Notes under the pieces: model-generated | What the model was told of the DNA's origin: nothing | Seen by the model: the letters and a program-made list of their open reading frames with translations, nothing else | The model's database searches: none | Shown here: in pieces, positions 16,440-63,253 of the stretch | Layout: each line of letters starts with the position of its first letter | Numbering within the stretch: position 1 is the first letter of the stretch | Translations under genes and position numbers: made by a program | DNA from: Betaproteobacteria bacterium Ga0077527 | GTDB lineage: Bacteria > Pseudomonadota > Gammaproteobacteria > Burkholderiales > SG8-41 | DNA: 64,000 bases | Direction: 5' to 3' | Assembly: GCA_001464815.1 (NCBI GenBank) | Contig: LNDW01000007.1 | Location: 79,746 to 143,745, forward strand

Positions 16440-17507
16440 TCATTCGTGGCGAATGATCGCCTTCGCCAGTGTGTTCACCGCGGGCTCGTCACAGCCGGCC
16501 AGGTTGAAGCGGGGTGCTTCAACAAGCCGCGGGTAGTGGCTGTCGATGGCACGGGTGTAGGCAGGGTCGTAGTGGCGGACGAGCAGTGCTTCGGTCAGTT
16601 CGCGCCAGCGGCCTTCGCGCGCCTGCGCCTGCCAGTCATTGATGGTCTCGCCGCCGTGCAGCGGGCGCAGGCAGTCGAGCTGGGCGTTCAGCGCTGCGGC
16701 ATCACTGACGAAATGGGTGTATTCGTCAATCAGCAGATCCACCCGCACCGGGATCGCGGCCTCGATCACCACGCAGCGGCTTTGCCACATCGCGGCGATC
16801 AGTTCGGGCGGCACCCGCAGCTGTCCGACCTTCTTGCTTTCGGATTCGACAAACACCGGCCGCTGCGATGACAGCGTCTTCAGCGCATGCCAGACCCGGC
16901 TTTCGAAGAGTTTCTGCGAGGGTTGCGGTTCATCGGGCAGGTTGCCGAGCACCGAGCCGCGGTGTGCGGCGAGCGCTTCGAGGTCGAGCACCTGTGCACC
17001 CTGGGCGGCCATCGCGCGCAGCACGCGGCTCTTGCCGGTGCCGGTCATGCCGCAGAGTACCCGCCAGTCAAAACGCGCGGGCAGGGTTTCCAGTTCGCTG
17101 ATCACTGTCTTGCGGTAGGTCTTGTAGCCGCCGCTGATGCGGCCGACCTGCCAGCCGATCTCCGCCAGCACATGCGCCATCGCACCGCTGCGCCCGCCGC
17201 CGCGCCAGCAATACACCAGCGGCTTCCAGTCGCGCGGTTTGCCGATGAACTGTTCACGCAGATGGCGGCCGATGTTGGCGGAAACCAGTGCGGCACCGAT
17301 CTTTTTTGCGTCGAACGGTGACACCTGCTTGTAGATGGTGCCGACTTCCGCCCGTTCCTCGTTGTTCAGTACCGGGCAGCTGATCGCGCCGGGAACATGG
17401 TCTTCGGCGTACTCGTCTTCCGAGCGTACGTCGATGATGGTATCGAAGCCGGCGAGTGCTTCGCTTGGGGCGACATCGGAAATGCGTGAGGGGCGCTGAT
17501 TGCTCAT
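16440..17507 (-). CDS. selU: tRNA 2-selenouridine synthase (rhodanese + P-loop)
   Basis: Rhodanese active-site CWRGGGRS, P-loop GMTGTGKS. The internal Met (MSNQRPS..) at 17507 avoids overlapping mnmC. Confidence 0.8.
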   Translation of the reverse strand: MSNQRPSRISDVAPSEALAGFDTIIDVRSEDEYAEDHVPGAISCPVLNNEERAEVGTIYKQVSPFDAKKIGAALVSANIGRHLREQFIGKPRDWKPLVYCWRGGGRSGAMAHVLAEIGWQVGRISGGYKTYRKTVISELETLPARFDWRVLCGMTGTGKSRVLRAMAAQGAQVLDLEALAAHRGSVLGNLPDEPQPSQKLFESRVWHALKTLSSQRPVFVESESKKVGQLRVPPELIAAMWQSRCVVIEAAIPVRVDLLIDEYTHFVSDAAALNAQLDCLRPLHGGETINDWQAQAREGRWRELTEALLVRHYDPAYTRAIDSHYPRLVEAPRFNLAGCDEPAVNTLAKAIIRHE

Positions 17508-17535
17508 TGGGGGAGTGGCTGGTGGGCGGCGGATT

Positions 17536-19473
17536 TTAACCCGGCGCGTCCACCTTGCCGCGGCGTAATGCCTGCAGCAACTGCCGCGCCGGATCGAGGG
17601 CTGCGGCGAGTTCACGCTCCAGCGGCGGCGGTTCGCCGTTGGCCATGCAGGCGATCAGTTCCGCGGCGGGCACCGACCAGGCCAGGCCGCGCGAGCCGTA
17701 GCCGAAGGCACCATAAAGCTGCGGCTGGCGCGGCAGGTCCTGCAACTGTGCGCCGCGCAGTTCCTCGGCGCGGGCGATCGCGGCAGCGGTGTCGGGCATT
17801 GCACCGGCCAGCGGCAGGTGGTCGGGCGTGGAAACGCGGCTGCCGGTCACCGCATGCAGGTCGTCCTGCGGCAAGGCATGGCCGGTGACACGCTGCCAAC
17901 GTTGCAGGTTGTCGCGATGCGCTTCTGCAATCGAAGCCGCTGCTCCGCTGGCGTAATGACCGCCAAGCAGCAGGCGGCCATCGTCCAGCGTAAAGGCGTT
18001 GACCGCACCGGTCAGCGGCACTGCAGGCCGCCACGTACCCGGTGCTGACAGCAAAGTCTGCTGGCCGTGATTCATGCGCAGCGTGAATTCCGCGGGCGCC
18101 AGCCGCGCGGCGTCGGCGGCGTTCGCCAGCACCAGCGCTGCGGCACTGGCGATGACCTGTCCGGTGGTGTCAAGCGCCTGCCATTGTCCTGCGCTGCGCC
18201 TGATGCCGGCCACATGTTGCCCGCGGATCAGCCGGGTGCCGGCGTATTCCAGTTGCGCGGCGATCAGCGCGCGTGGTTCTACCCAGCCGCCAACGGCAAA
18301 CCACCAGCCGCCGTGGCGCAGGGGCAGGCCGCAGCGCGTGGATAATGTCGCGGCATCGAGGCTGCAGGCGTACTGCGGCGGCAGCGCAAGGCGTGCCACG
18401 GTTTCGGCCATGTTTGCGGCTTCGGCCTCATCCTCTGCAACCACGGCGAGACCGGTGCAATGTGCCTCGGGGTCATGCCCGGCATCAGTGAGCATCCGCC
18501 ATGCCGCCGCGGTGTGCAGAAAACCGCTGCGCAGCAGGCGCGACAGCAGCGCATCGTCCGGTGACAGGTGCGGGTGCAGGGTCGCGGCGCGGATTGCTGA
18601 AGCGCCGCCGGGCAGTGTGTCCGCGGCATCGATCAGCGTGCTTGTCCAGCCGCGCCGTGCAAACTGCTGGGCCACCGCCGCGCCGGCAATGCCGCCGCCG
18701 ATGATCAGCACTTCGCGTGCTGCGGGGGCCGTGGTGGCAGGATCGGCGGCCATCGTTCGCCACGCCGGTGGCCGGTACACCGCCTGCAGCCGGTGTTTTT
18801 TGCGGCCGAATCCCGGCTGGCGCTCCACCGCGAAGCCGGCACGGGTCAGACCTTCGCGCACCGCGCCGGCGGCGCTCCAGGTGGCGAGGGTGGCGCCAGC
18901 GGCGGCGAGGCGCGCGCATTCGCCGAATACGTTTTCACTCCACATCGCCGGATTACGCGCCGGCGAGAAGCCATCGAGATAAAAGGCGTCGAAGGGCCCG
19001 TCGAGTTTCGGCAGCAGGCTTTCGATGTCGCCGAAACACAGCGTCAGCAGCACCCGGTCCTCGGCCAGCCACAGCCGGTGCAGACCGGGGAGGGGCAGCG
19101 GCCATTGTGCGATCAGTTCGCGGCTCAGTGACGCAAGTTCAGGGTGATGGCCGTGGCTGCGCGCAAGGTCTTCCGCGCTCGCCGGATGTTTTTCGATGGA
19201 AAACAGATGCAGCCGCTCGCCGTGTGCCGGATCGGCGAGCCAGGCGGAGGCCGTGGCGAGTGTGTTGATGCCGAGGCCGAAACCGGTTTCGAGCACACGG
19301 AAAATGCGCCGGTCCGCCCAGCGCTGCGGCAGGCCGCAGCCGGTGATGAACACCGCCCTGGCCTGGGCCAGTGCGCCGTCGGCGCTGTGATAGACGTCGC
19401 CATAGTCCGCTGCGTACGGCGTGCCGTCTTCCAGCAGCGTGATGTGTGCGGCGGTGATGGTCGGGTTGTTCAC
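17536..19473 (-). CDS. mnmC: bifunctional tRNA (mnm5s2U34) methyltransferase / FAD-dependent cmnm5s2U34 oxidoreductase
   Basis: 645 aa. N-terminal SAM-methyltransferase part (..ETGFGLGINTL.., FYLDGFSPA.NP.MW). C-terminal DAO-type FAD domain (IIGGGIAGAA). GTG start. Confidence 0.85.
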   Translation of the reverse strand: MNNPTITAAHITLLEDGTPYAADYGDVYHSADGALAQARAVFITGCGLPQRWADRRIFRVLETGFGLGINTLATASAWLADPAHGERLHLFSIEKHPASAEDLARSHGHHPELASLSRELIAQWPLPLPGLHRLWLAEDRVLLTLCFGDIESLLPKLDGPFDAFYLDGFSPARNPAMWSENVFGECARLAAAGATLATWSAAGAVREGLTRAGFAVERQPGFGRKKHRLQAVYRPPAWRTMAADPATTAPAAREVLIIGGGIAGAAVAQQFARRGWTSTLIDAADTLPGGASAIRAATLHPHLSPDDALLSRLLRSGFLHTAAAWRMLTDAGHDPEAHCTGLAVVAEDEAEAANMAETVARLALPPQYACSLDAATLSTRCGLPLRHGGWWFAVGGWVEPRALIAAQLEYAGTRLIRGQHVAGIRRSAGQWQALDTTGQVIASAAALVLANAADAARLAPAEFTLRMNHGQQTLLSAPGTWRPAVPLTGAVNAFTLDDGRLLLGGHYASGAAASIAEAHRDNLQRWQRVTGHALPQDDLHAVTGSRVSTPDHLPLAGAMPDTAAAIARAEELRGAQLQDLPRQPQLYGAFGYGSRGLAWSVPAAELIACMANGEPPPLERELAAALDPARQLLQALRRGKVDAPG

Positions 19474-19595
19474 GATGGGGGGCTGCGGTGCCTCGTCAAG
19501 CCGGGGTGGTTATGTTACGTTTGCCACCGCCTGAAGAATCGTTTTTCAGGCGTTTCATTCGAAAAACGAGCATTCGAAAAAATCAGGTCACCACG

Positions 19596-20654
19596 ATGAG
19601 CGACAAACCCGACACCGCACCCCTCCGCCTGACGCAGTTTTCCCACGGCGGTGGGTGAGGCTGCAAACTGACGCCAGCGTTGCTGAGCGAGGTATTGTCG
19701 CAAACCCCCGCGGCCCTGCCGTTCAAGGACCTGCTGGTGGGCAACGAGTCGGCTGACGACGCGGCGGTGTATCGCCTGAATGATACGCAGGCGATAGTCG
19801 CCACCACGGACTTCTTCATGCCCATCGTGGATGATCCCTACGATTTCGGGCGCATCGCCGCGACCAACGCGATCTCCGACGTGTATGCGATGGGCGGCAA
19901 GCCGTTCATGGCGCTGGCGCTGCTCGGTTTCCCGGTGGGCAAGCTGCCGATGGCGGCGGCGCAGCGCATCACCGCCGGCGGCCAGGCGGTCTGCACGCAG
20001 GTCGGTATTCCGATTGCCGGCGGCCATTCGATTGATGCGCCCGAGGCGATCTACGGCCTGGTGGTGCTGGGTCTGGTGCATCCGGACCGCGTCAAGCGCA
20101 ACGACCGCGCGCAGGCCGGCGACGTGCTGATCCTCGGCAAGGGGCTGGGTGTGGGCATCATGAGTGCCGCGCTGAAAAAGGGCGAGCTGCACGACAAGGC
20201 CTACCAGCAGATGATTGAATCCACCACCAAGCTCAATACGCCGGGCGCGCAGCTCGCCGAAATGCCCGAGGTGCACGCGCTGACCGACGTCACCGGCTTC
20301 GGTTTGCTCGGGCACCTGCTGGAAATCTGCCGCGGCTCGAAACTTTCCGCGCAGCTCGATTCGGCGAAGATTCCGGTGCTTTCCGCGGCGAAATTTCTGG
20401 TCGAGCAGGGTTTTGTCACCGGTGCCTCGGACCGTAACTGGCAGAGTTATGGCCACGATGTGCGGATGCCGACGGGTGACACGACGAACCTGCGCAAGCT
20501 GCTTACCGACCCTCAGACCAGCGGCGGCCTGCTGGTGGCCTGCGCGCCGCAGGCGGCTGAAGCGGTGTTGAACCGTTTCCGCGCCGAGGGTTTTGCCGAT
20601 GCCGCGGTGATCGGCCGGATGGAAGCGGGCGCTGCCCAGGTGAAGGTGGTCTAG
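19596..20654 (+). CDS. selD: selenide, water dikinase (selenophosphate synthetase), Sec-containing form; in-frame UGA at 19656..19658
   Basis: Reading from the ATG at 19596 gives MSDKPDTAPLRLTQFSHGGG-U-GCKLTPALLSEVL.., colinear with E. coli SelD [20 protein letters not shown], where the aligned residue is the catalytic Cys17. The ORF track only reports the part after the TGA (19680..). Confidence 0.85.
19672..19689 (+). other. candidate SECIS-like hairpin downstream of the selD UGA
   Basis: CGCCAGC-GUU-GCUG(A)GCG: a 7-bp stem with one bulged A and a G/U-containing loop, starting 13 nt after the UGA. The structure was folded by eye only. Confidence 0.3.
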
Positions 20655-53742: not shown

Positions 53743-54114
53743 ATGGCGCGTTACCCGGGACTGATGCTGCGCATCCTCGCCGAGGATCACCCGGCAATCG
53801 GACCGGGCAAGGCGCAACTGGTGGCGCTGATTGATTCCACGGGTTCCATTTCGGCGGCTGCACGCGAAATGGGCATGTCCTATCGTCGTGCATGGCAACT
53901 GGTGGAGGCGCTGAACGCCAGTTTCATCGAGCCGGTGGTGATGACCGCGGTCGGCGGCAAGCGCGGTGGTGGTGCGGTGGTCACCGCGTTTGGCCGTGAA
54001 CTGGTGCAGCAGTTCCGCGCGATCGAGGACAAGGCCTCGAAAGCCATCGCCACCGACATCGAACGGCTGCAGCGACGGATGCGCAAGCCGCCACGGGCGC
54101 CGCAGCGCCAATGA
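53743..54114 (+). CDS. short ModE-like regulator (N-terminal winged-HTH domain only, no Mop/di-Mop domain)
   Basis: 123 aa: ..GPGKA.L...I..TGSISAAAREMGMSYRRAW.LV..LN......V.....GG..GGGA..T..G. Confidence 0.7.
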   Translation: MARYPGLMLRILAEDHPAIGPGKAQLVALIDSTGSISAAAREMGMSYRRAWQLVEALNASFIEPVVMTAVGGKRGGGAVVTAFGRELVQQFRAIEDKASKAIATDIERLQRRMRKPPRAPQRQ

Positions 54115-54150
54115 TTTCAAGGTTCCTGAATTGCCGCGGTTGCCACACTT

Positions 54151-54174
54151 CGTTATATTCAGAAAAACATAACG
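54151..54174. promoter_or_regulatory. ModE-type operator upstream of modA
   Basis: CGTTATAT-tcagaaaa-ACATAACG. Closely resembles the E. coli modA operator as I recall it (CGTTATATTGTCGCCTACATAACG). Lies 30-53 nt upstream of the modA ATG. Confidence 0.55.
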
Positions 54175-54203
54175 ACGAGACTGGCGGACGCTGTATTTAT
54201 TCC

Positions 54204-54986
54204 ATGAATTTTAATAAATTATTGTTTTTATTGATTATTTTATGGTCATCCAGTCTTGCAGCCGCGCAGTCTGAAGTGCCGGCTGTGGCCGCGGCATCGG
54301 ACCTGAAATTTGCGGTGGAGGAAATTGCCGTGCGTTTTCGCAGCGAGACCCGGCGTGAAGTGCGGCTTTCCTTCGGTTCATCGGGCAATTATTTCCAGCA
54401 GATCGTGCAGGGCGCGCCATTCCAGTTGTTCATGTCCGCGGATGAAGACTTCGTGCACAAACTGCATGCCGGTGGCAGGACCGAGGACCGCGGTGTGCTG
54501 TACGCCATCGGGCGCATCGTCCTCTTCGCCCCGCATGCTTCGCTGCTGCAGGTCGATGCGACCATGGGCGGGCTGAAATCGGCGCTGGCTGCCGGGCAGA
54601 TCCGCCGCTTTGCGATCGCCAATCCCGAGCACGCGCCATATGGACGGGCCGCGGAGCAGGCCCTGCGCAAGCTGGGACTTTGGGAGGGTTTGCGCGACCG
54701 GCTGGTTCTTGGCGAGAACGTATCGCAGGCAGCGCAGTTTGCCGCGGGGGGCTCGACCCAGGGCGGGATTTTTGCCTACTCGCTGGCGCTGGCGCCGCAG
54801 GTTTCCAGGCTTGGCCGCTACGTGCTGCTGCCGGAAGAATGGCACCAGCCGCTGCGCCAGCGCATGGTGCTGACGAAGGGTGCCGGGGAAACCGCGCGGG
54901 CTTTCTACGCCTATCTTCAGCAACCCGCGGCGCGCGAGGTGTTCGTGCGTTATGGTTTCACGCTACCGCAAACCGCGCTGCAATAA
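54204..54986 (+). CDS. modA: molybdate ABC transporter substrate-binding protein
   Basis: Signal peptide MNFNKLLFLLIILWSSSLAAA, then ModA blocks (..FGSSG.....I..GAP...F.SAD.., ..A.P...PYG..A...L). The ATG at 54204 is preferred. Confidence 0.85.
   Translation: MNFNKLLFLLIILWSSSLAAAQSEVPAVAAASDLKFAVEEIAVRFRSETRREVRLSFGSSGNYFQQIVQGAPFQLFMSADEDFVHKLHAGGRTEDRGVLYAIGRIVLFAPHASLLQVDATMGGLKSALAAGQIRRFAIANPEHAPYGRAAEQALRKLGLWEGLRDRLVLGENVSQAAQFAAGGSTQGGIFAYSLALAPQVSRLGRYVLLPEEWHQPLRQRMVLTKGAGETARAFYAYLQQPAAREVFVRYGFTLPQTALQ
54221..54233 (-). repeat. AT-rich element copy 8 (exact core, reverse orientation)
   Basis: Lies inside the modA signal-peptide codons KLLFLLIIL (aaa tta ttg ttt tta ttg att att tta). 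Confidence 0.9.
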
Positions 54987-54992
54987 ACCGCC

Positions 54993-55664
54993 ATGGACTG
55001 GCCTGCACTGAAGCTCTCGCTCGAACTGGCGGCATGGACCGTGCTGATCCTGCTGCCGGTCGGCATCTTTACGGGGCGGATGCTGGCTTACCGGCAATTC
55101 GGCGGCAAAGCCTGGCTGGAAGCACTGCTCGCGCTGCCGCTGGTGCTGCCACCGACGGTGCTCGGTTACTACCTGCTGGTGGTGATGGGCGGCGCTTCCC
55201 CGATTGGCCAGTTTTATGAATCCCTGTTCGGCCGGCCGCTGGTGTTCAACTTCGGTGGCCTGCTGGTGGCTTCGGTGATTTTCAACCTGCCGTTCGCGAT
55301 CCAGCCGATCCAGCGCGGCTTCGAGGCCATCGCGCCCGAGGTGCGCGATGCTGCCGCCTGCTGCGGTCTGTCGCGCTGGCGTACGCTGTGGCGCATCGAG
55401 CTGCCCCTGGCCTGGCCGGGCCTGCTGTCCGCGATGGTGCTGACGTTTGCACACACGCTGGGCGAATTCGGCGTGGTGCTGATGGTTGGAGGCAACATCC
55501 CCGGAGAGACCAAGACCATCGCCATCGCGATCTATGACCGCGTGCAGGCTTTTGACAATGCCGCTGCGGGCATCATGTCGACCACGCTGTTGCTGATTTC
55601 ACTGCTGGCGATCGCGGCGGCGTATTTCACCAGCGCCCGATTGCAACCCCGGCGCCATGGCTGA
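54993..55664 (+). CDS. modB: molybdate ABC transporter permease
   Basis: 223 aa with ModB/CysTW-type permease blocks (..LPLVLPPTV.GYYLL.., ..EFG.V.M..GNIPG.T). Confidence 0.85.
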   Translation: MDWPALKLSLELAAWTVLILLPVGIFTGRMLAYRQFGGKAWLEALLALPLVLPPTVLGYYLLVVMGGASPIGQFYESLFGRPLVFNFGGLLVASVIFNLPFAIQPIQRGFEAIAPEVRDAAACCGLSRWRTLWRIELPLAWPGLLSAMVLTFAHTLGEFGVVLMVGGNIPGETKTIAIAIYDRVQAFDNAAAGIMSTTLLLISLLAIAAAYFTSARLQPRRHG

Positions 55665-55669
55665 ATGTC

Positions 55670-56839
55670 ATGACTGAGGGCATACACATCAGGCTCAGGC
55701 AGACGGGCCCGATCCCGCTCGATGCCGCCCTCGATTGCGCACCGGGCGAGGTGCTGGCCCTGGTCGGTCCCTCGGGTAGCGGCAAGACCACCATCCTGCG
55801 TGCCATTGCCGGGCTGCTGCGTGTCGCGGAGGGGGAAATCAGCAGCAACGGCGAATGCTGGTTCGATGCTGCGCGTGATGTGTATGTGGCGGCGAGGCAG
55901 CGTCGGGTCGGCTATGTGTTCCAGAATTACGCGCTGTTCCCGCATCTCAATGCACTGCAGAACGTGATGGAGGCGATGCTCGAGCTGCCTCCGGCGCAAC
56001 GTGAGGCGCGGGCGCGGGACTGGCTGGCGCGGGTGCGCCTTGCAGGGCTGGAATCGAGGCTGCCGGCTGCGCTGTCCGGCGGCCAGCAGCAGCGCGTGGC
56101 GGTGGCACGCGCGCTGGCGCGTGAGCCCCGGGTGCTGCTGCTCGACGAACCCTTTTCGGCGGTGGACCGCGCGACCCGGCAGCGCCTTTATCGTGAACTG
56201 GCTGAGTTGCGCCGTGAACTGGCGATGCCGGTGATTCTGGTCACCCATGACCTCGACGAGGCGCTGATGCTGGCCGACCGGCTTTGCGTGCTGCACCAGG
56301 GACGCAGCCTGCAGGCAGGTGATCCCTATGCGGTGATGACCCGGCCGGACAGTGTTGAAGTCGCGCAGCTGGTGGGCCTGCGCAACGTCTTTCGCGCCGG
56401 TGTGGTCGGCCATGATGCCGGGCGCGACCGCACTCTCATCGAGTGGCGAGGCCACCGGCTTGAGGCGAGATTACAGACAGCCTTCGCCCCGGGTCAGCAG
56501 GTGAACTGGGTAATCCCGCAGGGGCATGTCATGCTGCATCGCCGCGACCGGCCATCACGTGGTGAACGCGAAAATCCGCTGCACGGCCCGGTCATCGAGT
56601 GTCTTGGATTGGGCGAGCAGGTGGCGCTGACCGTGGCTGTCAACGGCGCGCAGCGGCCGCCGCTGTTTCTCAGCGTGCCGAGCCACGTCGCCAGACGCAA
56701 CGGTATTGCCGCCGGTGTCGAGGTTGGTGTTTCCCTGCTGGCGGACGGCATACACCTGATGCCTGCCGATGAGTCACGTACACCGCCGCGGCCGGGTGAG
56801 CGCGGGCCGGGCACTGGTAAACTTGCGGCATCACATTGA
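55670..56839 (+). CDS. modC: molybdate ABC transporter ATP-binding protein with C-terminal TOBE-like domain
   Basis: [35 protein letters not shown], and a C-terminal ~130-aa extension. Confidence 0.85.
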
Positions 56840-56849
56840 CGGCACAGGC

Positions 56850-57344
56850 ATGAAAATTTTCGGATTCGCCGGTTATTCCGGCAGCGGCAAGACCACGCTG
56901 ATCGAGCGGCTGATCCCGCTGTTCACCGCGCGCGGGCTGACCGTGTCGCTGGTGAAGCATGCCCACCATGCCTTTGATGTCGACCAGCCAGGCAAGGATT
57001 CCTACCGCCACCGCCATGCCGGCTGCACCGAGGTGCTGGTCACCTCGTCGCGGCGCTGGGCGCTGATGCATGAGCTGCGCGGCGCACCTGAACCGGGCCT
57101 GGCCGAGCAGATCGCGCGCCTGTCGCCCTGCGATCTGCTGCTGGTCGAGGGCTTCAAGCGCGAGGCGATCCCCAAGCTGGAGGTGTACCGCGCCGAGGTC
57201 GGCGAGTCGCTGATTCATCCCCATGATCCGAACGTGGTTGCGGTGGCCAGCGATGCCCCGGTCGACACCCGGCTGCCGCGGCTCGATCTCAACGCGCCGC
57301 CGCCGATCGCCGAGTTCATCCTCCGCCACCTTGGACTGCAATGA
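56850..57344 (+). CDS. mobB: molybdopterin-guanine dinucleotide biosynthesis adapter protein
   Basis: MKIFGFAGYSGSGKTTLIE.LIP....RGL.VS..KH.HH.FD.D.PGKDS. Confidence 0.85.
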   Translation: MKIFGFAGYSGSGKTTLIERLIPLFTARGLTVSLVKHAHHAFDVDQPGKDSYRHRHAGCTEVLVTSSRRWALMHELRGAPEPGLAEQIARLSPCDLLLVEGFKREAIPKLEVYRAEVGESLIHPHDPNVVAVASDAPVDTRLPRLDLNAPPPIAEFILRHLGLQ

Positions 57345-57354
57345 GGGGGCTGAC

Positions 57355-57621
57355 ATGAGCGGCGCAACCGTGACCCTGCTTTATTTCGCCCGCTTGCGCG
57401 AGTCGCTGGGACTTGCGCGCGAGGAGCTGGCGCTGCCCGCCGGCGTGGACACCCTGCAGGCGCTGCGTGTCCACCTTGCCGCCCGCGGTGGTGCCTGGGC
57501 CGAGGCGATGGCACCTGCGCGCAAGCTGCGCGCCGCGGTGAACCAGACGCTCGCGCTGGACGATACAGCGCTGAAAGCCGGCGACGAGGTCGCGTTTTTT
57601 CCGCCGGTCACCGGGGGCTAG
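57355..57621 (+). CDS. moaD: molybdopterin synthase sulfur carrier subunit
   Basis: 88 aa, ends ..GDEVAFFPPVTGG*, the canonical ubiquitin-like GG terminus. Confidence 0.8.
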   Translation: MSGATVTLLYFARLRESLGLAREELALPAGVDTLQALRVHLAARGGAWAEAMAPARKLRAAVNQTLALDDTALKAGDEVAFFPPVTGG

Positions 57622-57624
57622 GCC

Positions 57625-58086
57625 ATGAACGTACGCGTGCAGGAGGCCGACTTCGACATCGCCGCTGAAATCGCCGCGATGCGCCGCGGCAATCCCAGGA
57701 TCGGTGCCATCGCCAGCTTCATCGGCGTGGTGCGCGACATCAACGATGGTGATGCGGTATCGACGATGACGCTTGAGCATTATCCGGGCATGACCGAGAA
57801 ATCGATCGGCGTCATCATTGAGCAGGCACGCGGGCGCTGGGAAGTGCTGGATGCGCTGGTGATCCACCGCGTCGGCACGCTCAAGCCCACCGACCAGATC
57901 GTGCTGGTGGTGGTCGCCAGCGGTCACCGCGGCGACGCCTTTGCCGCCTGCGAATTCATCATGGATTACCTGAAAACCCAGGCGCCGTTCTGGAAGAAGG
58001 AAGTCACGCCCCAGGGCGCGCGCTGGGTCGATGCCCGGACCAGCGATGATGCCGCCCTGGAGCGTTGGCGGCAGGGTTCGGGCTGA
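57625..58086 (+). CDS. moaE: molybdopterin synthase catalytic subunit
   Basis: 153 aa with MoaE blocks (..GA...F.G.VRD......V..L..EHYP.M......I, ..FWKKE). Confidence 0.85.
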   Translation: MNVRVQEADFDIAAEIAAMRRGNPRIGAIASFIGVVRDINDGDAVSTMTLEHYPGMTEKSIGVIIEQARGRWEVLDALVIHRVGTLKPTDQIVLVVVASGHRGDAFAACEFIMDYLKTQAPFWKKEVTPQGARWVDARTSDDAALERWRQGSG

Positions 58087-58177
58087 CAGCGGGCAGGCCC
58101 TGCCCGGCAGGCGGACGGACAATTCCGTCTCGCCTATAATCCCGGCACATGCAAATCCTGCCGCAATCACCGTTCCG

Positions 58178-59890
58178 TTGAGCCGCCTGCTCGATCAGTT
58201 GCGCGAGGCTGCGCGCCTGCGCCTGCGCAAAACCCGCGATGACGATGCGGCCGCGCAAGTGATTGCCGGTTCCGGCAGCCTGCTCGAAGCTGCTGCGGCT
58301 CAGGCCCGGCGCAATGCGGCCCGGGAATCCGCTGAGAACCCGCGGCCGGAACAGGAACTGCTGGAGCTCCATTCGCATATCGCCGCCGCCGAGGCGGCAC
58401 AGGCCGCCTCGCGCGAGTCTGCTGCCAGCGACGTTGCCCGGATTGAGGTTGAGCGCGAACTCAGGCAGGCCGCGGACCGTCGGGCGCAGGCCGAAGCGCA
58501 GGCTCTGGCCGCGAATCAATTACGTGTCGCCGAAGCGCAGCGTGCCCTTGAAGCCGCGGCACAGCGCCAGGCTGCGGAAGCGGCGGCTCTCCACATGGCA
58601 CGCCAGCGTGAGCAGAGCGAGGGGGAGGCGGTGGCGCGGCTGCAGGCACAAGCCGAAGCTGACGCCGAAGCCGCGGCGCTGGCTGCCAAACGCGCCGTGC
58701 AGGAACAGGCGCTTGCCCGGCAATTGCGGGACAAGGCCGAGGCCGAGCAAGCCCTTGCCCGGGCCGCAGCGAACCGTGCCGCGGCCGAGCGGGAGGCCAT
58801 TGCTGCAGCGCGTGAGCATGCTGAAGCATTGCAGGTGGCGCAGGCGGCCGTGATGCAGCGCGAACAGGCGGAGCGCAACGAACAGGAGCAGGCCGCGCTG
58901 AAGATCGCTGCCGAACGACTCGCCGCCGAACGCGCCGAGTCGCTCGCCGCCGCCGAACAGAAGGCCGCCATCGCCGCCGCACAGAAGGCGCGCGAACTGG
59001 CGCTGCTTGCCGAGGCCGAGCGGCAGCGCCGTGACGCCGGGGTCACGGCCGGTGTCGCAGCTGCAGCCCGGGCACAGGCTGAAGAGCAGGCCGCGGCGGA
59101 AGCGGCAGCGCTGGAAGGGGAACGCAGGGCTGCTGCCGAAGCCGAGACCCGTCGCGCCCAGGTTGAGGCGCAGGCCGAGGCCACGGCACAGCAGCGCGCA
59201 CTGCAGGCGCGACGGGATGCGGATGCTGACCGGGCCGCGGCAGAAGCGCAGGTCGCGGCTGCCCGGGATGCGCTGCAGGCGGCGCAGGAGCGCATGGCCG
59301 CTGAGCGTGAACTCGAGCAGGCTGCGGCGGCGCGCGACCGGGAACTGGCGCTGTTGCTCGAAGCGATGCGGGAGCAGGCTGAGGCGGAATCCGAAGCCGA
59401 GGCCGCTGCAGCGGCGAAGCAGGCCGCCGAGACCGCGGCCCTCGGCCGCGAGGCCGAACTGCTGCAGGCACGCGCCCTTGCCGACGAACAGGCCGCTGCC
59501 GCGGCCCGCGCCCGGGTGGAGGCGCTTGCCGAAACCGCGCGGGTGTCGAAGCGTCTGGATGAGGCGCGGCTGCATTCGGCAGAGGCCGAGGCGGATCGTG
59601 AAGCCTCGGAGTCATCGGAGGCGGCCCAGGCGGCAGCCGCACGCAGGGCGTCGCAGACACAGTTGCTGCAGCGCTCTCGGCGTTACTGGCCAGCCTTGCC
59701 GCTGGCCCTGCTGCTGGTGGCGGCGGGGTTCGGCCTGGGCCAGTGGCGGGCCGGTATGGCACCGGCCGCACACGAAGCGAAAATTCCGGACGCACCGGCG
59801 GCCGAAATGCCGGCGACGCTGCAGCTGCGCCTGGATGCGGACGTCGAGACCTTCGGCAGCCGCCGTCCGCCCGCTGCGCAGGGCCGCTGA
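58178..59890 (+). CDS. long Ala/Glu/Gln/Arg-rich coiled-coil protein with a single C-terminal TM anchor (function unknown; start codon uncertain)
   Basis: Same frame as ORF 58031..59890. About 500 aa of heptad-like AEAQA/RQAAE repeats, then YWPALPLALLLVAAGFGLGQW and a ~45-aa tail. A TATAAT box lies at 58135..58140. No ATG lies downstream of moaE, so TTG 58178 is a guess. Confidence 0.45.
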   Translation: MSRLLDQLREAARLRLRKTRDDDAAAQVIAGSGSLLEAAAAQARRNAARESAENPRPEQELLELHSHIAAAEAAQAASRESAASDVARIEVERELRQAADRRAQAEAQALAANQLRVAEAQRALEAAAQRQAAEAAALHMARQREQSEGEAVARLQAQAEADAEAAALAAKRAVQEQALARQLRDKAEAEQALARAAANRAAAEREAIAAAREHAEALQVAQAAVMQREQAERNEQEQAALKIAAERLAAERAESLAAAEQKAAIAAAQKARELALLAEAERQRRDAGVTAGVAAAARAQAEEQAAAEAAALEGERRAAAEAETRRAQVEAQAEATAQQRALQARRDADADRAAAEAQVAAARDALQAAQERMAAERELEQAAAARDRELALLLEAMREQAEAESEAEAAAAAKQAAETAALGREAELLQARALADEQAAAAARARVEALAETARVSKRLDEARLHSAEAEADREASESSEAAQAAAARRASQTQLLQRSRRYWPALPLALLLVAAGFGLGQWRAGMAPAAHEAKIPDAPAAEMPATLQLRLDADVETFGSRRPPAAQGR

Positions 59891-60898: not shown

Positions 60899-61531
60899 TT
60901 ATTTCTGCGCGCAGATGCGGCAGGCATACTCTTCCAGTGTGGTGCGGGTGACCCCCACTGCGCCATGCTGGCGGCGGTTGTATTCCTCGCTTTCGAGTTC
61001 GGTGCGGAATGAATCGTTGAGGCGGTTGATCATGTTGAACATGCCGGTGATCAGCGAGATCTCGACAATCTCGGCGTCGCTGAACTGTTTTTTCAGATCG
61101 TCCCAGACTTTGTTGTCGCGTTTCGCGGTGTTCAGCGTCATCGCTTCCGCCCAGGCAATGACGGCTTTTTCGCGATCATTGAACAGCTGGCTGTCGCGGT
61201 AATCATCAGCCTGCAGTGCGTCGAACTCTTCGTCTTTCAGTCCCAGTGCTTGACCAAGCACGTAGTTGTGCTCCGTTCAATATTTGCAGCCGTTGATTGT
61301 CGAAGTTTTCAGCACGGCAAGGTTGCGCAGGCGCACATCGGATACCGCGCCGGCATTGGGCTGGCGCACCGCTGCGATGAAGGGCAGGGTCCAGCGCGCC
61401 AGATAAGGGCTGTGCGCGAGGATGCGCATCAGGTTGGCAGTGCGGCCGAGCATCTTGTTCGAGGCCTCGAACAGCTCTTTGGCCGGGCCTGTTGCTTCTT
61501 CGTCGCTGATGCCGCGGATGCGCTGGGTCAT
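60899..61531 (-). CDS. carboxymuconolactone decarboxylase / AhpD-like family selenoprotein (CxxU); in-frame UGA at 61277..61279
   Basis: The ORF-track entries 61277..61531 and 60899..61261 are in the same frame. Joined, they read ..LKTSTINGCKY-U-TEHNYVLGQALGL.., which places Sec at the second Cys of the AhpD-core N.C.YC..H motif. A SECIS-type hairpin follows. Confidence 0.75.
61246..61261 (-). other. bacterial SECIS-type hairpin (GUGCUU-GGUC-AAGCAC)
   Basis: A perfect 6-bp stem with a GGUC apical loop, the same loop sequence as the E. coli fdhF SECIS. The stem starts 15 nt after the UGA. Confidence 0.6.
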
Positions 61532-61543
61532 GGTGATGCCTCC

Positions 61544-62059
61544 TCAGGGTTGTTCGATGGCGTTCACGGCCGCATAACGGCCGCGGAAATAACCCAGCGC
61601 GTCGCGCTCGGCGTGGGCGTACTTGAGCACATGGCCGATGAAGATCACGTGGTCGCCGGCGTAGTGGCGCGCTTCGGTGCGGCATTCGAACTGCGCCGCG
61701 GCGCCGTCGAGCAAGGGCAGGCGCTCGCGGCCTTCGGAGCAGGCGACACCCTCGAACTTGTTCGGAATCGGCTTCGAGAAGCGCTGCGACAGCTCTATCT
61801 GGTCCCGTGCCAGCACATTGATCGCGAAATGCGTGGCCTGCAGGAAGTTGGGCAGGTTGGGTGAACGCAGCGACAGGCTCCACAGCACCAGCGGCGGTGC
61901 CAGCGACACCGAGCTGAAGGAGTTGGCGGTGAGGCCGATCGGGTCTCCCGCAGCGGTGCGGGTGGTGACGATGGTGACCCCGGTGGCAAACAGGCCCAGC
62001 GCATTGCGGAAGTCGCGCGGATCGAAGTCCGGCGCGGCCGGTGTGTTGTGGTCAGCCAT
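61544..62059 (-). CDS. flavin reductase (NAD(P)H:flavin oxidoreductase, HpaC-like small component)
   Basis: 171 aa: ..FR.ALG.FATGVTIVTT......P.G.TANSF.SVSL.PPLVLWS. Confidence 0.8.
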   Translation of the reverse strand: MADHNTPAAPDFDPRDFRNALGLFATGVTIVTTRTAAGDPIGLTANSFSSVSLAPPLVLWSLSLRSPNLPNFLQATHFAINVLARDQIELSQRFSKPIPNKFEGVACSEGRERLPLLDGAAAQFECRTEARHYAGDHVIFIGHVLKYAHAERDALGYFRGRYAAVNAIEQP

Positions 62060-62077: not shown

Positions 62078-63253
62078 TTACAAAGTCGGCAAATCGGCGG
62101 CAATGCCCAGCAGGTCCTTGCCCGCCATCGTGGTGGCGATGTCCCAGGCCAGCGCGTAGTGGCTGTTCGCCGCGTGTACGTCACGGAAGGAACGCTGGAT
62201 TGTCTGCTGGTTGTAGAGGAATTCGCCGCCACCGGCACCAAACAGCAGGTCCACCGCGGTGGTGCAGAGGTGGGCGGCATAGGCGCCGTCGCGGCGCAGG
62301 CGGATCTTGTGGTCACGCGCCAGCACACCTGTTGCGGCCAGCGCCATCACATCGCGGCAATTGCCGAGCAGCGTGCGTTCAGCGGCGGCCACCGCCGCGG
62401 CGGCATGACCCAGCCGCGACTGCGTGGTCGCGTAGTCGGCGAGCAGCGTGGTCGAGTAGGCGGTGATGCGGTGGCGGATGTCCTCGGTGAAACTCTCGAG
62501 CGCGCCCTGGGCGATGCCCAGCGCGGCGCCGGCGACCACATACGGAAACAAGTCGAATACCGGCAGCCGGTAGAGCGCCGCGGTTTCGCCGCCGGGCGCG
62601 ATGCCGCCTTTCATGTCCTTTACCGCCAGCGCACGGTGCGCCGGCACGAAGATGTTGCTGACCTCAACATCCTTGCTGCCGGTGCCGCGCAGGCCCGCGA
62701 CATGCCAGGTGTCGATGATGCGGTAGTCGGAGGCCGGTACCAGGAACACCTGGTATTCGGGCAACTCGCCTTCGCTGCTGTGGGCGATGCCGCCGAGCAT
62801 GCACCAGCCGCAGGCGTCGATGCCGCTGGAGAATTTCCAGTGGCCGGAGAGACGGTAGCCGCCATCGGCGCGTTCGGCGTGGCCGGCGGGAAACATCAGT
62901 GCCGAACCCACCAGCGTGTCTGGCGAGGGTCCCCAGATTTCATCCTGTGCCTGGCGCGGCCACAACGCGAGCATCCAGTGGTGGTTGGCGAGGTTGGCCA
63001 GAACCCAGGCGGTCGAGCCGCAGCCGCGGCCGATGATCGCGGTCAGCTCGACGATGGCTTCATAGGACAGTTCGCTGCCGCCCACCCGTTTCGGTTGCAG
63101 CATGCGAAACAGGCCGCTGGCATGCAGGTCGGCCAGCGTGTCATCGGGAATACGCCGCAGTTCCTCGGCGCGTGATGCCCGCTCGCGCAGCCTGGGAACC
63201 AGCACCAGTGCGCGCTGGACCAGCTCGGCGTGCGTGGGCGCGGCGACGGCCAT
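62078..63253 (-). CDS. acyl-CoA-dehydrogenase-fold flavin-dependent monooxygenase (oxygenase component, C2-HpaH/HsaA-like)
   Basis: 391 aa with a family-like N-terminus (..RA.E.E..R..P..T...L...GLFR.LQP...GG.E), ..G.W.F.SG...... and ..RD.HA...H. Confidence 0.7.
   Translation of the reverse strand: MAVAAPTHAELVQRALVLVPRLRERASRAEELRRIPDDTLADLHASGLFRMLQPKRVGGSELSYEAIVELTAIIGRGCGSTAWVLANLANHHWMLALWPRQAQDEIWGPSPDTLVGSALMFPAGHAERADGGYRLSGHWKFSSGIDACGWCMLGGIAHSSEGELPEYQVFLVPASDYRIIDTWHVAGLRGTGSKDVEVSNIFVPAHRALAVKDMKGGIAPGGETAALYRLPVFDLFPYVVAGAALGIAQGALESFTEDIRHRITAYSTTLLADYATTQSRLGHAAAAVAAAERTLLGNCRDVMALAATGVLARDHKIRLRRDGAYAAHLCTTAVDLLFGAGGGEFLYNQQTIQRSFRDVHAANSHYALAWDIATTMAGKDLLGIAADLPTL

Follow-up and report, generated by a model that had tools for sequence, protein, structure and literature searches.

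A UGA-interrupted gene of a betaproteobacterium very probably encodes a single AhpD-like selenoprotein with a SECIS hairpin inside the coding sequence

AhpD-like proteins with the family motif CxxU (PMC13188914, PMC2398784), in which U stands for selenocysteine (Sec), belong to the earliest new selenoprotein families that were predicted computationally from metagenome data (PMC1088965, PMC2398784). The Sargasso Sea metagenome study reported 27 AhpD-like CxxU sequences (PMC1088965), the Global Ocean Sampling study reported 299 sequences of 'AhpD-like 1' (COG2128) and 70 of 'AhpD-like 2' (PF02627) (PMC2398784), and both a 2026 review and BSepDB include the AhpD-like selenoprotein family (PMC13326102, PMC13188914). 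The current study concerns a gene on the reverse strand of a 64,000-nucleotide stretch from Betaproteobacteria bacterium Ga0077527 (positions 79,746 to 143,745 of contig LNDW01000007.1, assembly GCA_001464815.1; hereafter the window, numbered from its first letter), which is interrupted at codon 85 by an in-frame TGA. Judging from the sequence comparisons described here, this UGA is very probably a genuine Sec codon, and the two open reading frames (ORFs) that it separates very probably constitute one gene for a 210-residue oxidoreductase of the AhpD/CMD fold with the active site Cys82-x-x-Sec85...His88.

The joined ORF runs on the reverse strand from an ATG at 61531 to a TAA at 60901..60899 and comprises 210 codons. 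The TGA at 61279..61277 is preceded by 84 codons and followed by 125 in an unchanged frame, and the joined product, written with U at position 85, reads ..KTSTINGCKY-U-TEHNYVLGQALGLKDEEF.. around the interruption. A preliminary description of this DNA, made from the letters and an ORF list, had reported two ORFs in the same frame split only by this TGA, and all of its coordinates proved correct when the sequence was read again. The public gene calls of NCBI, IMG, ENA and Logan all split the gene into an 84-aa ORF and an ORF of about 120 aa that starts at the GTG at 61261; at 90% identity, the clusters of these fragments in the searched public collections hold 177 members for the 84-aa fragment and 46 for the fragment of about 120 aa, under the names 'hypothetical protein' or 'alkylhydroperoxidase family enzyme'. 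Reading the two public fragments as one probable selenoprotein would thus correct a systematic annotation error, and automatic pipelines will go on missing the gene because no NCBIfam model reaches its cut-off.

A homologue search performed with Cys at position 85 returned 1,477 homologues, the best of which, single chains of about 225 aa, share 60-69% identity with the query over 97-100% of its length. An alignment of 25 full-length homologues (60-67% identity) has Cys at column 85 in every row, within an invariant motif C82-x-Y84-C85-x-x-H88, and the CxxC..H pattern is present in 119 of 120 homologues among the matches listed. The TGA therefore sits on a conserved catalytic Cys and not on a domain boundary, since the homologous column is Cys throughout; the preliminary description, which had placed the UGA on the second Cys of the AhpD-core CxxC motif and had proposed looking for Cys homologues at position 85, is borne out on both counts.

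The TGA itself is conserved among the orthologues. A scan of one genome per species yielded 49 loci, mostly labelled as betaproteobacterial or Burkholderiales metagenome-assembled genomes (MAGs). The 44 MAG orthologues, at about 70-96% amino-acid identity, have TGA at codon 85 in every case, followed by about 125 further open codons and a common end, and none of the 44 contains a frameshift or an extra stop. In a metagenome scan, 80 of 80 loci (78-94% identity) carried the TGA together with the identical 16-mer of the hairpin described below. None of these 124 TGA orthologues has a domain boundary at the UGA, which is one of the findings that the preliminary description had named as speaking against recoding. 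Three distant genome homologues (57-58% identity) have TGC at codon 85, and the SECIS-like (selenocysteine insertion sequence-like) hairpin is absent from these three Cys-coding genes. Most members of the subfamily come from betaproteobacterial/Burkholderiales MAGs and from contigs of environmental metagenomes.

Two further observations were made among these loci. One of them, L048 (MEQT01000063.1, 4001..4441, Betaproteobacteria bacterium RIFCSPLOWO2_02_64_14), keeps the TGA and lacks about 62 codons (codons ~92-153) through an in-frame deletion that took the hairpin with it, which would make it either a decayed copy or a misassembly. In addition, some MAGs that carry the gene (L014, L025, L030 and others) are labelled Acidimicrobiaceae, Streptomycetaceae or Bordetella parapertussis, labels that probably reflect mistakes of binning or naming in the public records.

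Selection on the protein does not stop at the UGA. Median ratios of nonsynonymous to synonymous substitution rates (dN/dS), estimated by the pairwise Nei-Gojobori method over 838 pairs, were 0.138 for codons 2-84 and 0.117 for codons 98-206. Synonymous divergence (dS) among the orthologues is 0.6-1.5, with synonymous sites near saturation, and the 124 TGA orthologues are therefore not one clonal sequence. Moreover, within the five codons that separate the TGA from the GTG used in the public gene calls, codons 86, 88 and 89 retain Thr, His and Asn and vary synonymously (ACG/ACC/ACA/ACT, CAC/CAT and AAC/AAT, respectively). Since these codons keep their amino acids and change at the third position, both a model in which the gene has decayed and a model with two separate ORFs are disfavoured.

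Downstream of the UGA, the transcript can form a hairpin whose 16-nucleotide (nt) core, GUGCUU-GGUC-AAGCAC (GTGCTTGGTCAAGCAC in the sequence), lies at 61261..61246 on the reverse strand, 15 nt after the TGA, and re-reading found the perfect 6-bp stem and GGUC loop just as first described. The consensus structure that RNAalifold derives from 40 sequences, numbered here from the U of the UGA, comprises a 3-bp lower stem (+15..+17 with +35..+37), a 1-nt bulge on the 5' side (+18), a 6-bp upper stem (+19..+24 with +29..+34) and the GGUC loop (+25..+28). The 16-nt core is the same in the 44 MAG orthologues but for one change of a U-A to a U-G pair (L027). The pairs of the lower stem show only compatible one-sided changes (U-G/C-G, C-G/U-G and G-U/A-U), and the pairing holds even where codon 90 is Arg (CGG/CGA) instead of Tyr (UAC); any of C, G, A or U may occupy the bulge.

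The hairpin is also apparent as a constraint on codon choice. Synonymous-codon heterozygosity, computed on 44 sequences (43 MAG orthologues and the window), is 0.44 upstream and 0.42 downstream, falls to 0.086 across codons 91-97 and reaches 0.00 over codons 91-94. The codons fixed in the hairpin are locally rare in this genome of 63% G+C (CTT accounts for 6.6% of Leu codons, and GGT, CAA and GCA for 18%, 16% and 10.5% of their respective sets), and in the single sequence the joint probability of the six-codon choice in the hairpin is 7.6e-5. The bSECIS model for bacterial SECIS elements requires a loop of 3-9 nt, a G in the first two loop positions, an upper stem of 4-16 bp, 16-37 nt between UGA and loop, and a minimum free energy (MFE) of -7.5 kcal/mol or lower (PMC13188914). 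The hairpin described here has a 4-nt GGUC loop, a 6-bp stem, 21 nt from UGA to loop and, with the lower stem included, -8.4 kcal/mol, all of which lie within these limits. Within the window, a perfect stem of at least 6 bp that obeys the bSECIS loop and spacing rules follows 4.1% of the TGA triplets, and 0.7% when a small loop with GG or GU is also required; a scan of the window for further TGA-split ORFs with a SECIS-like hairpin gave nothing else convincing. The hairpin is thus weak evidence in one sequence, and the comparative data take it far beyond chance.

The GGUC apical loop is shared with the SECIS of Escherichia coli fdhF. That element has the loop G23-U24, an essential bulged U17, a 4-bp upper stem and a minimal hairpin of 17 nt located 11 nt after the UGA (PMC8659212). 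The base of the hairpin in the window is likewise at +15, that is 11 nt after the UGA, and a single bulged nucleotide likewise lies 5' of the upper stem. However, the upper stem is 6 bp here and 4 bp in E. coli, the bulged base may be any of the four nucleotides here whereas it is the essential U17 there, and the structure in the window has a 3-bp lower stem with G-U pairs. Because the upper stem has 6 bp rather than 4, the loop G-U falls at +26/+27 instead of +23/+24. The hairpin had been called a textbook fdhF SECIS; that comparison stands for the loop and for the position of the base and does not extend to the stem length, the position of the loop G-U or the bulge, which is not a conserved U. 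Besides, the 23-nt hairpin might be used to seed searches or be offered as a substrate in tests of a betaproteobacterial SelB.

Further evidence for the use of Sec comes from the window itself, which encodes a selenide, water dikinase (SelD) whose gene, 41 kb from the AhpD-like gene, has a Sec codon of its own, as the preliminary description had pointed out (Table 1). With Cys substituted for U, the product scores 526 bits against the NCBIfam equivalog model for SelD (cut-off 299), and a hairpin with a GUU loop occurs 20 nt after the selD UGA. The selD gene is part of a selenium-utilisation cluster at 16440..20654 that also includes mnmH/selU and mnmC. Since this SelD cannot be made without Sec, Sec decoding by the organism is implied.

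According to its best NCBIfam matches, all of which are below the model cut-offs, the joined protein resembles a 'YciW-related (seleno)protein', the TIGR01926 'peroxidase-related enzyme' and an 'alkylhydroperoxidase-related (seleno)protein'; the scores against NF053654 (71 vs 310 bits) and NF041238 (41.5 vs 175) fall short in the same way. By these scores the protein is best described as a relative of the TIGR01926/COG2128 family, not a member by the curated criterion. Several homologues have a precomputed match to PF02627, and the profile of the family matches solved AhpD/CMD proteins with E-values from 2e-14 to 1e-3 and with the CxxC aligned. The AlphaFold2 model (predicted local distance difference test 89, predicted template modelling score 0.86) is all-helical and places C82 and U85 in a loop before a helix at residues 87-95. 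In a Foldseek search against the PDB, the top 37 matches were all AhpD/CMD proteins, the best being Bmp8, Atu0492, Deinococcus radiodurans AhpD and Pseudomonas aeruginosa PA0269/AhpD, and the protein is accordingly modelled with an AhpD/CMD fold. At the C-terminus, a Y-A-C-x-x-C motif occurs in 44 of 44 Sec orthologues, in at least 71 of the 80 metagenome copies and in only one of the 120 Cys homologues listed. This second Cys pair could be an internal reductant of a selenenylsulfide or a metal site, and its co-occurrence with Sec provides a testable lead on how a selenenylsulfide might be recycled.

Several results weigh against recoding of the UGA and against the assignment of the protein. 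The SECIS search proposed in the preliminary description found no Rfam family that matches the hairpin, either with the whole window at gathering thresholds or with 61180..61330 at E <= 10, where only noise was returned. Local folding of the hairpin in the single sequence gave z = -1.4, which is not significant. No double compensatory change was found in the stem among the 40 sequences, because the stem is invariant, and for the same reason the structural support rests on conservation, on one-sided compatible changes and on the frozen synonymous sites. Moreover, in the window's own sequence the MFE structure of the free RNA is a competing hairpin between GAGCAC (codons 87-88) and GUGCUU, at -11.8 kcal/mol. 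This pairing is available only where Glu87 is encoded by GAG and is the MFE structure for 7 of the 40 orthologues. If the first 15 nt, which would lie under a ribosome paused at the UGA, are held single-stranded, the SECIS hairpin is formed in 40 of 40, and the competing hairpin was rejected as a functional structure since it disappears once these ribosome-covered nucleotides are kept open. Neither selA nor selB nor a tRNA-Sec gene is present within the 64-kb window. On the side of the protein, the Pfam CMD model (PF02627) scores 22.0 bits against a gathering cut-off of 23, and TIGR01926 (peroxid_rel) scores 68.7 bits against 81.8. Finally, a search for a conserved partner gene failed, as the gene context is not kept across the Sec clade.

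Of the alternatives to Sec insertion, the one that survives best is that the UGA is read through without selenium, for example by near-cognate insertion of Trp or Cys or by a local recoding signal independent of SelB. Low-level read-through of UGA by tRNA-Trp is known to occur in bacteria, and SelB, SelA and tRNA-Sec were not seen within the window. Nonetheless, we regard this alternative as highly unlikely: the homologues have an invariant catalytic Cys at this position, where Trp would destroy the redox motif, the hairpin matches a bacterial SECIS in loop sequence, base position and spacing, the SelD of this genome needs Sec decoding for its own synthesis, and TGA is the main stop codon in the neighbourhood. 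Reassignment of UGA in the genetic code was considered separately and rejected, since TGA terminates 15 of the 20 neighbouring genes.

It might also be supposed that two polypeptides are made, one of 84 aa ending at the UGA and one of 120 aa initiated at its own GTG (61261). This is the division adopted by the gene callers of all four public sources, and the GTG is invariant. The invariance is however explained by the hairpin, whose stem begins with this triplet, and the GTG has no Shine-Dalgarno sequence in front of it. Under this arrangement codons 86-90 would be untranslated, yet T86, H88 and N89 are conserved with varying third positions; in addition, the CxxC..H active site would be cut in two, whereas every Cys homologue is a single chain. 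Independent translation of the two halves is, for these reasons, most improbable.

A pseudogene, in which a nonsense mutation from TGC or TGT to TGA struck a Cys-type AhpD-like gene next to a coincidental hairpin, would need only one base change, would agree with a hairpin that is statistically unremarkable in a single sequence and has a decayed-looking relative in L048 (in-frame deletion, hairpin lost), and it is effectively refuted, as the preliminary description had anticipated in judging recoding far likelier, by the TGA in 124 orthologues that were assembled independently and are close to saturation at synonymous sites, by a downstream dN/dS (0.12) as low as that upstream, by frameshifts or extra stops in none of 44 orthologues and by the synonymously frozen hairpin.

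If the UGA is recoded as we propose, it would not be read as a stop during translation; the hairpin would recruit the complex of SelB, GTP and Sec-tRNASec by the standard bacterial mechanism, and Sec would be inserted, with SelB binding and selenium incorporation presumed. Selenophosphate would be supplied by SelD, itself a probable selenoprotein. In the AhpD of Mycobacterium tuberculosis the second Cys of the CxxC motif is the nucleophile. By analogy, the reaction would begin with an attack of Sec85 on an oxidised substrate (for instance a peroxide, a sulfenate, a disulfide or some other electrophile). The adduct would be resolved by Cys82 to a selenenylsulfide, and a thiol donor, which might be the conserved C-terminal Cys203-x-x-Cys206, would reduce the enzyme again.

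As to the role of the enzyme, the disposal of peroxides leaked by free-flavin monooxygenases may be the most economical guess, because the gene is located within a catabolic cluster that is under LysR control and includes a two-component flavin monooxygenase. A different role, which we consider unlikely, starts from the extra C-terminal CxxC of the Sec form and from the varied catabolic clusters in which it occurs, here with the flavin monooxygenase, a luciferase-like monooxygenase and Gfo/Idh/MocA dehydrogenases: the protein might be a specialised reductase of a pathway intermediate, with a pair of redox centres, and not a general scavenger of peroxides. Sec85 would then be the nucleophile, and the C-terminal dithiol would shuttle electrons within the protein; candidate reactions would be reductive dehalogenation or deoxygenation of the Bmp8 kind, or the reduction of a quinone or an organic hydroperoxide. 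The functional guess is weak and the substrate is not fixed by the context, because the context is not conserved across the Sec clade: the arrangement with the flavin monooxygenase was found only in the closest relatives (L001-L015), and the other Sec orthologues are located in different catabolic surroundings, between a phosphoenolpyruvate-utilising enzyme and 2-hydroxyacid dehydrogenases, or beside unrelated genes.

In the window, the local cluster consists of a divergently transcribed LysR gene followed, all on one strand, by two Gfo/Idh/MocA genes, TctC, a luciferase-like monooxygenase, a further Gfo/Idh/MocA gene, the HsaA/HpaB-like oxygenase, the flavin reductase, the putative selenoprotein gene and another Gfo/Idh/MocA gene. 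The oxygenase and the flavin reductase together would form the two-component flavin monooxygenase. The positions of the features discussed are given in Table 1.

Table 1. Location of the putative selenoprotein gene, its elements and other relevant genes in the window.
Feature	Position	Strand	Basis or remark
Complete AhpD/CMD-fold gene, very probable selenoprotein	60899..61531	-	Sequence; homologues span 97-100% of the joined protein; dN/dS of both halves
Shine-Dalgarno-like GAGGAGG	61539..61545	-	7 nt 5' of the ATG; overlaps the TGA with which the flavin reductase gene upstream ends; read from the sequence
UGA codon 85, very probable Sec codon, second position of C82-x-x-U85	61277..61279	-	Cys in 25/25 aligned homologues; TGA in 44/44 and 80/80 orthologues
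Active-site codons C82-K-Y-U85-T-E-H88, AhpD-type CxxC..H	61268..61288	-	C82, Y84 and H88 invariant; aligns with the CxxC of solved AhpD/CMD proteins and Bmp8
Predicted SECIS hairpin, 23 nt, +15..+37 from the U of the UGA	61243..61265	-	RNAalifold consensus; upper stem 61261..61256/61251..61246, loop GGUC 61255..61252
C-terminal C203-R-I-C206 (Y-A-C-x-x-C)	60914..60925	-	44/44 Sec orthologues
HsaA/HpaB-like oxygenase	63253..62078	-	Pfam and NCBIfam matches
Flavin reductase	62059..61544	-	Pfam and NCBIfam matches
selD (selenide, water dikinase), with its own putative Sec codon	19596..20654	+	In-frame TGA 19656..19658 in SHGGG-U-GCK
mnmH/selU (tRNA 2-selenouridine synthase)	16440..17615	-	Flanks selD
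mnmC	17536..19473	-	Flanks selD

Just beyond the cluster, genes for MoaE, MoaD (ThiS-like), MobB and a molybdate-type ATP-binding cassette transporter were observed in the loci L050/L051 (13446..17421, corresponding to about 54100..58090 of the window), and no molybdoenzyme selenoprotein such as formate dehydrogenase was seen near these molybdenum-cofactor genes. A 619-aa ORF at 58031..59890 on the forward strand is extremely rich in Ala, Glu, Gln and Arg, has no Pfam match and contains a hydrophobic segment near its C-terminus; the same ORF is called at 614-619 aa in public contigs. With regard to habitat, the contig of the window comes from metagenomes of drinking-water filters (activated carbon), and its sequence in the window is matched by contigs of granular-activated-carbon and drinking-water metagenomes and by a Burkholderiales MAG.

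When compared with characterised proteins, the predicted enzyme shares with the AhpD proteins of M. tuberculosis, D. radiodurans and P. aeruginosa, and with uncharacterised CMD proteins (PDB 6k40, 7xw1/2ijc and 2gmy), an all-helical fold, with template modelling (TM) scores of 0.6-0.87, and a CxxC..H motif in the same position. It differs from them in the presumed Sec where they have Cys, at an identity of 18-28%, in a C-terminal extension with a second CxxC and in having no AhpC partner gene nearby. The top Foldseek match is the tetrabromopyrrole debrominase Bmp8 (PDB 6ohi/6ohj; E 2.7e-6, TM 0.70/0.77), whose CMYC..H aligns with the CKYU..H of the window. Like the present gene, the gene of Bmp8 belongs to a specialised-metabolism cluster and not to an antioxidant operon. 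However, the identity to Bmp8 is 18%, Bmp8 uses Cys, and nothing in the window points to halogenated substrates.

The closest counterparts are the selenoproteins of the AhpD-like 1 (COG2128/TIGR01926) and AhpD-like 2 (CMD, PF02627) groups, which belong to the same superfamily, have Sec in place of the second Cys of the motif (C82-K-Y-U85 in the present gene), have Cys-containing homologues and carry a bacterial SECIS within the ORF (PMC1088965, PMC2398784, PMC13188914, PMC13326102). Unlike these, the protein described here has a C-terminal extension of about 40 residues that ends in the conserved CxxC, and it forms a separate subfamily because it scores under the cut-offs of all curated selenoprotein models. 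AhpD-like CxxU selenoproteins have been known since 2005, and no concept is therefore changed by the present results; what is new is this subfamily, publicly annotated only as fragments, through which a well-supported candidate selenoprotein would be added to the Burkholderiales-type betaproteobacterial MAGs.

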